Below, piece after piece: positions 26,854 through 57,518 of a stretch of DNA of 64,000 nucleotides. The notes beneath the pieces are model-generated. The model did not search any database, had not been told where the DNA came from, and saw only the letters and a list, made by a program, of their open reading frames with translations. The stretch's first letter is position 1. The number at the start of each line of letters is the position of its first letter. The stretch spans positions 7,983 to 71,982 of the forward strand of contig JACPDG010000051.1 of the NCBI GenBank assembly GCA_016184125.1. The letters run 5' to 3'. This stretch comes from Candidatus Rokuibacteriota bacterium. Its GTDB lineage: Bacteria; Methylomirabilota; Methylomirabilia; Rokubacteriales; CSP1-6. The translations under genes were made by a program, and so were the position numbers.

Positions 26854-27423
26854 TCAGGTCCTCGCTCGGGCCGGCAGGATGAAGCCGGACACCGTGATGG
26901 TCGCGAGCAGGTCCTTCGGGTGCGCGATGTTCATGACGCGCACCTTGAGATCCTGCACGGTCACGAGCTTTGGCGCACCCTCGAGGCGCGCGAGCAGGTC
27001 GACGAGGTTCTTGATCTCACCGGACACGGCGATCTCCACGGGGATCTCGAGGACCTCACCGCGCTCCACGGGCGGCAGGATACGCTCGCTCCTGACTTCC
27101 GTGCCTGCGGCGGTCGCCATCTCCTTGGCGATCTTCTGGAGCTCCGATGCCGCGACGGGCGGCGCGGCGGCGGTGAGGAGCTTCGCGGACAGCGTGTCGA
27201 TCCGCGCGGTCACCGCCTCGAGCTCATGGATGAGATCGGCCTTGCGCGCGATGAGCTCATGATGGCGCGCGAGCAGCCGCTCCCTTGCCGGAACGAGCTC
27301 CGCGGTGAGCTCGTCCTTCTCCCGGATCGGCTGCACCACGAATTCCCAGCCGATGACGACGACCATGGCGAGCACGGCGAGCGCGATGAGCAGGCGTTCG
27401 CGGCGCGAGAGGTTCCCGATCAT
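26854..27423 (-). CDS. gspM: T2SS GspM/PilO-like protein
   Basis: LSRRERLLI TM, coiled coil, ferredoxin-like C-terminus; operon position. Confidence 0.8.
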   Translation of the reverse strand: MIGNLSRRERLLIALAVLAMVVVIGWEFVVQPIREKDELTAELVPARERLLARHHELIARKADLIHELEAVTARIDTLSAKLLTAAAPPVAASELQKIAKEMATAAGTEVRSERILPPVERGEVLEIPVEIAVSGEIKNLVDLLARLEGAPKLVTVQDLKVRVMNIAHPKDLLATITVSGFILPARART

Positions 27424-29084
27424 CGGCCGCGCTCCGGGGCCGTCGAGCCCTGGCGGCGTGGGCCTTCGTCGCGCTCGGAGCCCGTAAGCGAATCGGGTGG
27501 CCGAGGAGCGCCACTTTGGCCGGTGCGTCCGCGCACCCCCCGGGGCGCTCCGAGCGCGGGGGGTTTGGGGGGCATCGATAGTCCCCCCTTGACCTCGCTC
27601 GGCCCGCCGGCATCGGTGTCCGGCGCCGCCGCACGCGGCCGGCGCGCGCTGCCGCCAGCGCCGGGCGCCGGTGACGGCGGAGCAGATGTGGCCCGGTTCG
27701 CTGCTGGTGCCGCGGCAGAGGTGCTGCCGCGCGGAGCTGCGCCGTTCGCGGCGCCTTCCCACTTCGCCAGGATCCTGAACTGCTCGCGGTCGCGGCCGCG
27801 CGTCACGGGCGAAGCGAACTCCGCGCGCTCGAGTCGCGGCGAGTTCTCGAGCAACGGGATCAGCGCGCTCGCGGTCGCGGCCTGGCCCGTCAGCTCGACG
27901 CCCTTGCCGTCGAGCGTGAGCAGGGTCAGCCACGCGTCGTTGGGTATCAGCTCGGTGAGCTCCCGGAGCATGGGCAGGGGGTGGACCGTGTTCGCCTCCA
28001 GTGACTGCATCGTCTCGAGCAGCTTCTTCCTGCGCTCGAGCTCGCCACGAATCCGCTCGACGGCGCGGACTTCGGGCTCGAGACGCGCGATGTCCGTGCT
28101 CAGGGCCTGGAGCCGCTGGCGGTCGCGGTAGCCCGGCAGGAGCAGCGCGGCGATCGCGAGCCCGGCCGCGAGCGCGCCGGTGCCCACCGTGATGACCTGC
28201 GGTCGCGTCAGACGCTTCGGCTTGAGCGCCGGGGGGATCAGGTCGAGCGTGCGAGAACGGCGACCGGCGGCGACGGCGAGGGCGAGCTCCAGCGCGCCGC
28301 GCGTGTCCTCCGGCAGGCGCGCCAGCAGCCGTCGCGCGCGCGGCGTCCACGGAGGCGCCGTGGTCGGCACGCCGAGACCTGCGAGCGTGGCGGTCGTCCC
28401 ACCAGCGGCAGGAGCGTCTCCGGAGCGCCAGACCGCGTCGCAGCCGCGCCAGCGAACGACGGCGAAGCTGCGCTTGATCTCGCTCGCGATCCCGGCCTCG
28501 TCGGCGGCCGGCACGTGCCGGCTGAGCACGAGCGTCTCGCCGTTGAGGAAGAGCAGGTCGGCGTCCGGGCCGACGCGGTGGACCCACACCACGCGGGACT
28601 TGCGTCGGGTCTGGACCTGCGCGACGAGATCGTGCACCGCCACGGTCACGGACACCGGCCGGAGGCCGGCCTCCTGGACGATGCGGAGCGCGGAATCGAC
28701 GACGCGGCGGTCACCGGCGGCCACCAGCACGCGGCGGGCCGAGACCTCCGTGCCGGCGCCCCGCTCGGCGGGCAGCGGGCCGAAGTCGAACGGGGCGTCC
28801 TCGGCCGGGAAAGGCAGATGACGCTCGAGCTCGAAGCGCACCATGTCGACGATCTCGCCCGCCACGTCCGGCAGCTCGATCGGCTTGACGACGACCGCGC
28901 CACGCGGCAGACCGACCGCGACGGCGCGCGGGCGGAGCTTGCGCGCATCGAGCTCCGCGCGGAGGGCGCTCGCCGGCTCCGCGGCGTCGACCACGAACGC
29001 GTCCACGCGGTTTCCGGCCAGCGCGGTGACGATCAGACGGTCACCGAGCGGGAGGACGGCGAGGCGAGTGCGGTGCAGGATCAC
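27420..29084 (-). CDS. gspL: T2SS GspL (PilM/PilN-like fusion)
   Basis: IELPDV...RFELERHLPF actin-like domain, TM, LRELTELIP...VELTGQA...FASPV; tail contains repeat copy B. Confidence 0.8.
   Translation of the reverse strand: MILHRTRLAVLPLGDRLIVTALAGNRVDAFVVDAAEPASALRAELDARKLRPRAVAVGLPRGAVVVKPIELPDVAGEIVDMVRFELERHLPFPAEDAPFDFGPLPAERGAGTEVSARRVLVAAGDRRVVDSALRIVQEAGLRPVSVTVAVHDLVAQVQTRRKSRVVWVHRVGPDADLLFLNGETLVLSRHVPAADEAGIASEIKRSFAVVRWRGCDAVWRSGDAPAAGGTTATLAGLGVPTTAPPWTPRARRLLARLPEDTRGALELALAVAAGRRSRTLDLIPPALKPKRLTRPQVITVGTGALAAGLAIAALLLPGYRDRQRLQALSTDIARLEPEVRAVERIRGELERRKKLLETMQSLEANTVHPLPMLRELTELIPNDAWLTLLTLDGKGVELTGQAATASALIPLLENSPRLERAEFASPVTRGRDREQFRILAKWEGAANGAAPRGSTSAAAPAANRATSAPPSPAPGAGGSARRPRAAAPDTDAGGPSEVKGGLSMPPKPPALGAPRGVRGRTGQSGAPRPPDSLTGSERDEGPRRQGSTAPERGR
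27474..27590 (-). repeat. G6/C6-hairpin repeat family 1, copy B (inside gspL CDS)
   Basis: GGGGGGACTATCGATGCCCCCCAAACCCCCCGCGCTCGGAG...GATTCGCTTACGG on minus strand. Confidence 0.88.
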
Positions 29085-29184: not shown

Positions 29185-30288
29185 TCAGCGCGCGCCGGAC
29201 CACTCGAGGAAGGCGACGGACGCGCCGCCGGGCGCGTCCCGTCGTTGCACGACCGCGGTGATCCTGGCGCCGACCCGTCCGTCGACTTGACCCTCCGCCT
29301 CGATGCGGAACGTCTGGGTGATGACACCGACCCCGCGCGCGCCGAACTGCCCGGGGACGCCGGCGTAGGGCCCCTCGCAGCGGGCCTGGAGGACGAGGTT
29401 GGTCTCGGCGTCGGCGAGGCCATACGCCTGGAGCACCTCACGCCGGGCCGTGTTGAGGTTCGCCCGGCCTCCCGACTTGACCGCGACGAGCGGCGCCAGC
29501 TTCTCGAAGATCTCGGGCGTCACCCCCTTGATCTGGCGGAGCTCCTCGATGGAGTCGAGGTTGCCGTTCTTCGACCGGTACGGGACCTCTCGCTCGAGGT
29601 ACGTGTCCTCGCTCTCCGCGCCGTTGAGGCGATACTCCTCGTTGGGATCCCGCCAGTCCTGGATCGACGCGACGATCGTGTCGCGCTCGCTCTTGTCGAT
29701 CTCGAGCTGCTGCAGGAGGCGGTCGAGGCGGTCGGGCCGCGTGGTGTTCAGGTTCAGGCGTGACTCCTCGTCGGTGATGACGTACGAGAACGTCCCCCCG
29801 GCGAGCGGCACGTCCTGCCGCGGCAGCCTGGGGATCTCCGTGCGATCCGCCCGGTAGAACGTGAGCGGGCCGTCGTTGCACGAGGCGGCGAACCGGACGT
29901 CGCCGACGATCTCGCGCACGGCCTGCTCGACCGCCGCCTCGGCCAGGTGCGCGCCGATCACCGCCTCCTTGTACGCGCGGACGGCCGACGCTTCCAGGCG
30001 CATCGAGAACGCGAACTCGGCGCCGACGACGCCGAGCAGCGCCATGACGAGGAGCACCGCGACGAGCGCGAACCCGCGCTCGCGCGCCGGGTCCCGCGGA
30101 CGACTCTCGGAGCCGGTGAACGAATCCGGAACCCGAGGGGCGGCCCGGGTTCCCCGGGTGCGTCCTCGCACCCCCCGGGCCGCCTCCGAGCGCGGGGCCG
30201 GGGGAGTACGAGGGGGGCGTGAGCCCCCTTCGTACGAATGTCGGGGGCTTCGATAGTCCCCCCATGAAAGTAGTCCCCCCGTGATCAT
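29185..30288 (-). CDS. gspK: T2SS minor pseudopilin K; leader extended by repeat copy C
   Basis: RG/FALVAVLL (no E5, typical of GspK), DEESRLNLN, DWRDPNE, SIEELRQIKGV; ATGA overlap with gspJ stop. Confidence 0.88.
   Translation of the reverse strand: MITGGLLSWGDYRSPRHSYEGGSRPPRTPPAPRSEAARGVRGRTRGTRAAPRVPDSFTGSESRPRDPARERGFALVAVLLVMALLGVVGAEFAFSMRLEASAVRAYKEAVIGAHLAEAAVEQAVREIVGDVRFAASCNDGPLTFYRADRTEIPRLPRQDVPLAGGTFSYVITDEESRLNLNTTRPDRLDRLLQQLEIDKSERDTIVASIQDWRDPNEEYRLNGAESEDTYLEREVPYRSKNGNLDSIEELRQIKGVTPEIFEKLAPLVAVKSGGRANLNTARREVLQAYGLADAETNLVLQARCEGPYAGVPGQFGARGVGVITQTFRIEAEGQVDGRVGARITAVVQRRDAPGGASVAFLEWSGAR
30110..30281 (-). repeat. G6/C6-hairpin repeat family 1, copy C (long subtype, duplicated head)
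   Basis: GGGGGGACTACTTTCATGGGGGGACTATCGAAGCCCCCGACATTCGTAC...GGATTCGTTCACCGG. Confidence 0.88.
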
Positions 30289-30899
30289 TGCAGCCCCGTC
30301 ACTTTCAGCGACACGGTGATCGGCGCCAGCGTCTCCGTGCGCCCACCGATCTCGGTTCCGAGCGTCACGCGGAGCGCGCGCGGCATCTCCTTCTCGTTCT
30401 CCACGTCCCACTCGTCGCGCCAGCTTCCGGATTCGTCGAGGTAGGCGATGGCCAGCGACGTGACCGACGGATCCCGCAGGACGACCGTGGCGTCGGTGAA
30501 CGGGTTGCGGTTGGGCAGCGCCCGCTGTCGGATGACGAGCCCGCGCTGCTCGCCCTCGTCGAGCTCCACGACCATCGCGGTGAACGCGATCGGGACGGAC
30601 GCCGCGAAGGGCGGTGACTGGGTCACCAGCTCCACGCGGCCAACCTCGCCCCCGAACAGGATTTCCAGCTCCGGCGCCTCGCCGCGCGTGCCCGCGTACG
30701 GATAGGCGCCGCCGAGCGCCCGCGCGAGCGCGAGCGCGACGCCGCGCGCGTGCTGGTGTACCTCCGCGCGCTCCTCGCCCTGCCGCCACGCGGCGAGCGC
30801 GACCCGCAGGCCGCCGAACGCCACGGCCAGCAGCGCGGCCACGATCGCGAGCGCGATGATGAGCTCCAGGAGCGTGAATCCTCGCTCGCCGGGCTTCAC
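30285..30899 (-). CDS. gspJ: T2SS minor pseudopilin J
   Basis: RG/FTLLELIIAL prepilin motif; GTGA overlap with gspI. Confidence 0.82.
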   Translation of the reverse strand: MKPGERGFTLLELIIALAIVAALLAVAFGGLRVALAAWRQGEERAEVHQHARGVALALARALGGAYPYAGTRGEAPELEILFGGEVGRVELVTQSPPFAASVPIAFTAMVVELDEGEQRGLVIRQRALPNRNPFTDATVVLRDPSVTSLAIAYLDESGSWRDEWDVENEKEMPRALRVTLGTEIGGRTETLAPITVSLKVTGLQ

Positions 30900-31441
30900 C
30901 GCGTGCGCTCCCGGGATCGTGGCGTCGACAGGGATCGCGGGGAGGTCGGTGGCGCTGCCGGGCCGACGGACGGCCGCGACGGCGCCCCGCGCCGACCGGT
31001 CGACGTCTGCGGCGTGGTCGAGCCGGCATCGGTCGTGCCGGTCTCGGTCGTCTCGTCCGGCGTGGACGACACCGTGCGCAGGGTCGCGATCTCCACCTGC
31101 CGCCGCTCGGCCCACCGGACGCGAACCGCGATCTGCCAGACCTTCCACGGCGACTCGGCCGCGCCGTCGGTGACGAGCTCCGGCGTCTCGACCGCCGTGG
31201 TCACACGCTCCCAGGTGAAGCCGGCATCGCGATCCTCTTCCTCCTCGCGGCCCTCCTTCGGCACGACGACCTCCCGGAGCTTCTGGTCGGCAAAGAGCGT
31301 CGCGCGCTGGTGCTCGCCGGAGAGCTTCAGCAGCCGCAGCCCCTGCGCGAAGCCCTGGATGGACGCCACGACGGCCACCGAGAGGATCGAGAGCGCCACG
31401 ATGACCTCGATCAGGGTGAACCCGCGCTGGGAGCCCGTCAT
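30896..31441 (-). CDS. gspI: T2SS minor pseudopilin I
   Basis: RG/FTLIEVIVAL; order H-I-J-K. Confidence 0.82.
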   Translation of the reverse strand: MTGSQRGFTLIEVIVALSILSVAVVASIQGFAQGLRLLKLSGEHQRATLFADQKLREVVVPKEGREEEEDRDAGFTWERVTTAVETPELVTDGAAESPWKVWQIAVRVRWAERRQVEIATLRTVSSTPDETTETGTTDAGSTTPQTSTGRRGAPSRPSVGPAAPPTSPRSLSTPRSRERTR

Positions 31442-57190: not shown

Positions 57191-57322
57191 GCGCCCGCCA
57201 TCCGACCCCGCGCTCGCCGGGGTCTGCTCGCTCGCGTCCTGGCGCGGTTCCATCCCCTGGTCCCGCGCCCCGTTGCCCGGCAGAGAATCCCCTTGACATG
57301 GCGGTTGTCCGCGCTGTAGGTG

Positions 57323-57427
57323 GGGGGCGGACGCGAGAACCGGGGGCGGACGCGAGAACCGGGGGCGGACGCGAGAACCGGGGGCGGACGCGAGAACCGG
57401 GGGCGGACGCGAGAACCGGGGGCGGAC
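57323..57427 (+). repeat. 19-bp tandem array, 5 full units plus a partial unit
   Basis: GGGGGCGGACGCGAGAACC at 57323, 57342, 57361, 57380, 57399; no spacers. Confidence 0.95.
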
Positions 57428-57518
57428 CCGGGACCCGGCGCGGAGGGGCGGGGTGCTGAGAAGGCGCGTTCCGTCAACCAGGGCCTTTATCCCGTCTACG
57501 CTCACCCTGGAGGTGACG

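Follow-up and report, generated by a model that had tools for sequence, protein, structure and literature searches.

How can a dispersed repeat settle directly behind the start codon of a secretion gene and leave that gene intact? The question is raised by gspK in a Candidatus Rokubacteria genome (4.09 Mb, 121 contigs, 70.7% G+C), from which a stretch of 64,000 nucleotides was analysed (hereafter the window, to which all positions refer unless a contig is named). Here, 180 nt of a high-copy repeat lie between the stop codon of gspJ and the part of gspK that encodes the mature pseudopilin.

Position of the repeat in the gspK leader

The cluster follows the order gspH-I-J-K-L(PilM/PilN)-M with RTGA overlaps, gspK lying directly after gspJ. 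The gene for minor pseudopilin J, gspJ (30285..30899, minus strand; Pfam N_methyl 3.5e-08 and T2SSJ 5.3e-06; start and stop codons checked), starts with a GTG that overlaps the gspI stop (GTGA) and ends with the TGA at 30287-30285 (minus strand). Over this stop lies the gspK ATG (30288-30286), giving the ATGA overlap (30285..30288, minus strand) that had been proposed in the initial annotation and with which the sequence at 30288-30285 of the minus strand agrees. From this coupled ATG, the gene for minor pseudopilin K (gspK, 29185..30288, minus strand) extends over 367 codons. Its product matches the Pfam domains T2SSK_1st (3.3e-22, 79.7 bits for a cut-off of 26.2) and HHH_3 (helix-hairpin-helix, 1.5e-06), as well as N_methyl weakly (residues 69-89; 17.8 bits, under the 21.2-bit cut-off). 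GspK orthologues are 54-65% identical across Rokubacteria; the closest GspK matches were all found in Candidatus Rokubacteria/Methylomirabilota MAGs, and near-identical sequence was found in groundwater metagenomes. Further upstream, GspI carries a Thr/Pro/Ser-rich tail of ~60 residues beyond the conserved pseudopilin domain (window 30896-31080, minus strand), which ends in the GTGA overlap with gspJ.

The frame is open for 72 codons from the gspK ATG to the junction of GGG (30075-30073) and TTC (30072-30070) on the minus strand. This junction is the predicted cleavage site (...RERG|FALVAVLLVMALLGVVGAEF) of a class III signal peptide, in which the leader ends in Gly and is followed by a hydrophobic helix. 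The mature N-terminus, FALVAVLLVMALLGVVGAEFA (30010..30072, minus strand), corresponds to the hydrophobic alpha1N helix, has Ala in place of Glu at +5 and is almost identical in orthologues, in which the G|FALVAVLLV motif is likewise conserved. The lack of Glu at +5 is typical of GspK.

Most of the leader is the inserted repeat copy (30105..30284, minus strand; TCACGGGGGG...GGCTCCGAGA), a net 180 nt or 60 codons that correspond to leader residues 2-61. Its boundaries were placed using the pile-ups of HSP starts and ends, an alignment with 72 full copies and an excision test. Both edges of the insert read GA, a 2-nt identity that may stem from duplication or from chance. On the minus strand, the copy begins with a partial 5' duplicate of the terminal module (TCACGGGGGGACTACTT; 30268..30284), which abuts the gspJ TGA directly. 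It continues with module A (TCATGGGGGGACTATCGAAGCCCCC, a G6/C5 hairpin; 30243..30267), the optional module B (GACATTCGTACGAAGGGGGCTCACGCCCCCCTCGTACTCCCCCGG; 30198..30242), module C (the GGTGCGAGGACGCACC hairpin; 30159..30197) and module D (CCCGGGGAACCCGGGCCGCCCCTCGGG...GATTCGTTCACCGGCTCCGAGA; 30105..30158), the last being the 3' end of the element as delimited by HSP pile-ups and copy alignment. The remainder of the native leader (..SRPRDPARERG; 30073..30104, minus strand) follows and ends on the conserved Gly(-1) codon (30075-30073).

Excision of the 180 nt joins the two ends as ATG AGT CGT CCG CGG GAC CCG GCG CGC GAG CGC GGG|TTC, i.e. MSRPRDPARERG|F. The resulting 12-residue leader equals the median of the 99 distinct orthologous gspJ/gspK junctions described below (median of 29 nt from the gspJ stop to the Gly codon), and orthologous leaders such as MTPRRPTGRERG and MSASRAGAGERG resemble it. 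The pre-insertion state had to be taken from this excision because the metagenome and genome collections held no relative above 65% amino-acid identity. That a repeat is read in frame without a stop, giving 72 residues before G/FALV, had been proposed earlier, and the restoration of a typical 12-residue leader bears this out. As it stands, the 72-residue leader has a net charge of +8 and a GRAVY of -1.29, the 60 added residues being basic and rich in Pro, Gly and Ser.

The genome being a MAG, we considered whether the insert could be an artefact of metagenome assembly, i.e. a repeat copy misthreaded between gspJ and gspK, or one of wrong length. The copy number of the repeat is high, and Logan unitigs end within it without any crossing it from end to end; the 180-nt length and the frame rest on the MAG assembly and on a chain of overlapping exact unitigs, no single contig spanning the repeat. 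However, both repeat/gene junctions are matched without mismatch by Logan contigs of four independent groundwater metagenome runs, all belonging to one study; contigs entering from the gspK flank extend 53 nt into the repeat (to 30157), and those entering from the gspJ flank 34 nt (to 30251). In each of the four runs, copy-specific unitigs covering 30136-30196 equal the flanks in depth, as befits a single-copy locus, and no empty-site joint skipping the insert was found among the Logan contigs of eight runs. Moreover, in a groundwater population of another study (run X10) that is ~91% identical over window 29700-30700, the element lies at the same two junctions and the ATGA is kept; the two sequences differ by a net 9-nt deletion at 30271-30282. 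Since this relative carries the same gspJ/gspK insertion, the insertion predates the ~9% divergence. An assembly artefact is thus the least probable of the alternatives that we weighed, with hardly any weight left to it.

The repeat family in the genome and its relation to known elements

A blastn search of the genome with positions 30060-30300 returned 607 HSPs, or 220-380 per module, far beyond chance. Module A accounted for ~223 HSPs (290 matches at <=3 mismatches), the optional module B for only ~60, module C for ~215-270 and module D for up to ~380; once merged, the HSPs formed 237 loci of at least 60 nt. Alignment of the copies placed the 3' end of the element at ...GATTCGTTCACGGGCTC(T/C)GAGA. 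The family is modular, GC-rich, hairpin-forming and REP/MITE-like. It is overwhelmingly extragenic: coding-like flanks with one frame on both sides were found at only ~10 of the 237 loci (~4%). Those in ORFs with such flanks, about ten besides that of gspK (C106:20644-20823, C88:54556-54675, C113:8656-8757 and seven others), are candidate in-frame intragenic insertions.

At their 5' end, the copies crowd against stop codons. Of 290 copies, 59 have a TGA at a distance of 7 nt upstream of the ATGGGG core and 18 have one at 5 nt (TGATCATGGGG), for an expected count of ~2 per position as estimated from base composition. The gspK copy has the 5-nt arrangement, its partial duplicate abutting the TGA as in the 18 other copies that read TGATCATGGGG. 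About 30 copies, including that of gspK, match upstream of module A, and a clear partial duplicate of the start of this module was recognised in ~12. Because the repeats adjoin stop codons, and stops in this operon overlap the next start, a copy inserted in this way takes up the codons of the next gene from the second on.

No terminal inverted repeats were evident on the element. Only one match to Y1_Tnp (IS200/RAYT-type) was obtained in the genome, a truncated C-terminal piece that borders the end of a 4.1-kb contig (C45:3542-4120); no copy of the repeat lies beside it on contig C45, and no intact RAYT was found in the genome. Our literature search returned no description of this repeat family, nor of repeat insertions in prepilin leaders.

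Two other repeats were noted in the window. A second copy of the family in the same orientation (27472-27588, minus strand; 117 nt, 39 codons) forms the C-terminal tail of the PilM/PilN-type GspL, whose stop overlaps the gspM ATG (ATGA at 27420-27423). This copy is read in the same frame as that of GspK (..GVRGRT..PDS.TGSE..), a coincidence to which we attach no meaning, as all three frames are open and only two cases are available. At 57304-57455 (plus strand), a 19-nt unit (GGGGGCGGACGCGAGAACC) occurs six times in tandem.

The insert had been likened to Rickettsia palindromic elements (RPE), short palindromic repeats of ~100-150 bp that lie in frame and without stops within intact protein-coding genes, to which they add a peptide segment (PMC10969869). 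As regards the outcome, the resemblance holds: the gspK insert, too, is an in-frame, stop-free insertion (180 nt, 60 codons) in an intact ORF and adds peptide. It does not extend to family membership. RPE are intragenic and mostly occupy mature parts of proteins, whereas only ~4% of the loci of the present family look intragenic and the part of GspK that the copy encodes is expected to be removed; the family is also set apart by a sequence presumed unrelated and by the phylum of its host, Candidatus Rokubacteria and not Rickettsia. With the REP/BIME and REPIN-RAYT elements of Proteobacteria it shares high copy number, GC-rich hairpins, modularity, a mostly extragenic location and packing at gene ends, but its units are longer (90-300 nt) and lack GTAG/CGTC tags, and no intact RAYT was found. 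MIRU repeats, as reportedly described by Supply et al. in 1997, are said to occupy the intercistronic junctions of operons, with frames that overlap the upstream stop and the downstream start and so keep translational coupling. MIRU, however, are separate mini-ORFs between genes, whereas the gspK repeat extends the downstream protein at its N-terminus. We do not count the repeat as a member of the RPE, REP/BIME or MIRU families.

Orthologous junctions and the choice of start codon

For comparison, 152 loci were gathered from 41 related genomes, a species-level genome collection and JGI metagenomes, and yielded 99 distinct gspJ/gspK junctions from Rokubacteria. Of these 99, 95 show the RTGA overlap with a frame that stays open up to the Gly codon. 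In eleven junctions the gspJ stop and the Gly codon are at least 60 nt apart, and ten of the eleven are in frame and open (binomial P ~1e-4 against 1/3; P ~4e-4 if counted as ~9 of 10 independent events). The 72-residue leader of the window is the longest gspJ/gspK leader of the survey. Three others of the ten, in L018 (42 aa), L039 (44 aa) and L094 (24 aa), are devoid of any internal start, so that read-through from the overlap is obligatory there.

Inserts of other origins were found at the same place. At the gspJ/gspK junction, G001, a member of the same genus, carries an 84-nt element that is present in at least 50 copies in its own genome and leaves MT...EGG; G013 carries a GGAATGC-type palindrome found at ~10 loci of its genome, and G028 a dispersed repeat with at least 40 copies in its own. 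These three inserts and that of the window belong to different families, and all four begin 0-4 nt after the TGA. The L043 insert matches a low-copy repeat, and that of L039 is unique in its genome, i.e. not a repeat. The sole long spacer that is out of frame, L011, consists of two copies of a ~66-nt repeat and has an ATG of its own 7 codons before the cleavage site; its interpretation as a tandem duplication of the end of gspJ was rejected once these two copies were recognised. The GspI leader of L003 has one copy of the same ~66-nt repeat (GGCCACCCACGGGGCAAGCCGGCCTCGCGG...), and that of L102 a tandem pair.

Long leaders were also encountered at the gspH/gspI junction: ~81 aa in L007, 72 aa in L021 (-150 kcal/mol), 33 aa in L003, 55 aa in L102 (the tandem pair) and ~86 aa in L036 by stop-to-Gly distance, a 73-codon stretch of the last folding to -154 kcal/mol. 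Near-perfect hairpins of 200-250 nt (down to -154 kcal/mol) lie between the gspH stop and the GspI cleavage site in L021, L036, L007 and L079, most of them in frame, and an inverted copy of the L007 hairpin, 76% identical, lies ~1 kb away on the same contig. In L077 and in two sister variants of these, L075 and L117, the gspH/gspI insert is out of frame with the overlap; since the overlap frame is broken there, internal starts must serve at these three loci, and the in-frame rule is not absolute. Inserts are seldom present at gspI/gspJ (2 of 85 junctions). Long GspJ leaders suggested for L015 and L018 by a motif-only scan were dropped, as they vanished once the true gspI stop had been located by tblastn.

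The suggestion made in the initial annotation that the leader may be a safe landing site thus finds support in the comparison, through the RTGA overlap of 95 of 99 junctions, the frame kept by ten of eleven long spacers and the repeats of other families in G001, G013 and G028.

Which codon starts gspK in the window can be weighed from its sequence. The stretch that separates the element from the Gly codon is free of ATG, GTG and TTG and, by eye, of near-cognate codons; as the cleavage motif and the helix are conserved in frame, translation must begin within the repeat or before it. A single internal start exists in this frame, a GTG at codon 40 (30171-30169), 10 nt downstream of a GGAGG (30187-30183), both within module C and both where the initial annotation had located them. 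That text took a start at this GTG as an argument against a repeat-lengthened leader, and the argument is weaker than was assumed, since 33 residues would still precede the cleavage site. The leader would accordingly span at least 33 residues, all repeat-derived but for the last 11, and 72 if the coupled ATG is used.

Were GTG-40 the start, with the GGAGG of the repeat as Shine-Dalgarno sequence, the leader would count 33 residues, and the initial 117 nt of the repeat would escape translation and act as a spacer between the cistrons. The spacing of the GGAGG and the GTG suits such a start, and the relatives with a broken overlap frame at gspH/gspI must use internal starts. However, GGAGG and GTG belong to the repeat consensus in hundreds of copies and so do not reflect local adaptation, and the GTG is predicted to be buried in a GGGTGCG/CGCACCC stem of the folded RNA. 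With internal starts as the rule, nothing would keep the overlap codon in frame, yet it is in frame and open in ten of the eleven long gspJ/gspK spacers, and the change upstream of GTG-40 in the diverged relative of run X10 is 9 nt, a multiple of three. As far as these sequence features can tell, the coupled ATG is probably the start of gspK, and GTG-40 is an unlikely one, albeit the strongest of its competitors.

Proposed fate of the lengthened leader

We consider that the insertion is best explained, with a probability of roughly 0.7, by a repeat that came to lie beside the gspJ stop, entered codon 2 of gspK and lengthened a cleavable leader with near-neutral effect. The 180-nt copy adjoins the gspJ stop on its 3' side and, this stop overlapping the gspK start, falls in codon 2 of gspK. 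It would have persisted because its length is a multiple of three, without a stop in frame, and because the insertion extended a class III (prepilin) signal peptide in its hydrophilic leader. Ribosomes ending on gspJ would restart at the overlapping ATG and translate through the repeat, adding 60 basic, Pro/Gly/Ser-rich residues, and then the tail of the native leader (SRPRDPARERG) and the transmembrane helix. Following the positive-inside rule, the leader would remain cytoplasmic and need not cross the membrane. Prepilin peptidase would cut after Gly72, the last 11 native leader residues being intact, and release normal mature GspK; the insert would be near-neutral because it is discarded with the leader.

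Class III leaders are hydrophilic and cytoplasmic and are cut after Gly(-1) on the cytoplasmic face; their shortening is harmless in some systems, and SRP/Sec insertion depends on the hydrophobic helix (PMC4471445). Characterised leaders measure 6-26 aa, and one of 26 aa has already been termed unusually long (PMC4471445). Type IVb pilins, Flp and some archaellins share with GspK a hydrophilic basic leader ending in Gly, the hydrophobic helix and an A24 aspartyl peptidase, but the predicted leader of gspK differs from theirs in its 72 residues, 60 of which stem from a mobile repeat and not from an evolved leader. In the present genome, a Peptidase_A24 gene lies on contig C94, away from the gsp cluster. 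Processing of a 72-residue leader is plausible, although without precedent.

It could also be argued that the insertion disabled gspK or its processing, so that the gene is decaying or secretion proceeds without properly matured GspK, considering that no leader of this length has been shown to be processed and that the genome is a MAG. The 367-codon frame is nevertheless unbroken, all GspK domains are present and the gsp cluster around the gene is whole. The cleavage motif and the helix are conserved as in orthologues, the insert is kept with an in-frame indel in a relative ~9% diverged, and long in-frame leaders of comparable kind occur in many lineages. Loss of function is very improbable in the light of these features, being only slightly ahead of an assembly artefact.

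A further reading, compatible with a near-neutral lengthening of the leader, is that the insert has been co-opted and that its RNA structure or the long leader lowers or delays the synthesis and maturation of GspK, setting a low dose of this tip pseudopilin. The RNA of the repeat region is predicted to fold strongly (-130.8 kcal/mol, z = -2.6), with stems G6/C5-6, GGGGGCTCACGCCCCC, GGTGCGAGGACGCACC and CCCGGG..CCCGGG, and could hinder translation, a point against the near-neutral lengthening; long inserts, moreover, recur at pseudopilin junctions. On the other hand, the inserts belong to unrelated families and vary in length, and most orthologues do without them, which fits tolerance better than function. 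Consensus scanning of 29900-30500 revealed neither a sigma-70 promoter match nor an intrinsic-terminator-like site, which also speaks against co-option, and an Rfam scan of 29800-30600 at E <= 1 retrieved no matching RNA family. Co-option is therefore improbable, if somewhat less so than loss of function. As speculative is its broader form, in which the prepilin leaders of Rokubacteria would be a general sink for stop-side repeats and a long leader would be put to use as a regulatory module; any such use might lie in the RNA or in a 72-residue cytoplasmic pro-piece that throttles or times the tip pseudopilin, or in a released basic peptide with a role of its own.

With near-neutral lengthening retained as the preferred explanation, the removable GspK leader seems, from the sequences compared, to tolerate insertions. 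What is new here is the target, a cleavable prepilin leader that has been struck repeatedly by different repeat families and whose predicted length greatly exceeds that of known leaders. Should all 72 residues be translated and then cut off, prepilin peptidases would accept a leader roughly triple the length of any characterised one, and the leader would be almost free of constraint on sequence and length beyond its last few residues. For annotation, the locus is a warning that gene callers may choose a wrong start or split genes that carry such inserts. It also offers a natural example of gene architecture deciding where selfish repeats survive, by combining three features: the stop overlaps the next start, the repeat tends to settle at stop codons and the protein segment concerned is dispensable. 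This combination may explain why different repeat families are found at the same junction in different Rokubacteria.
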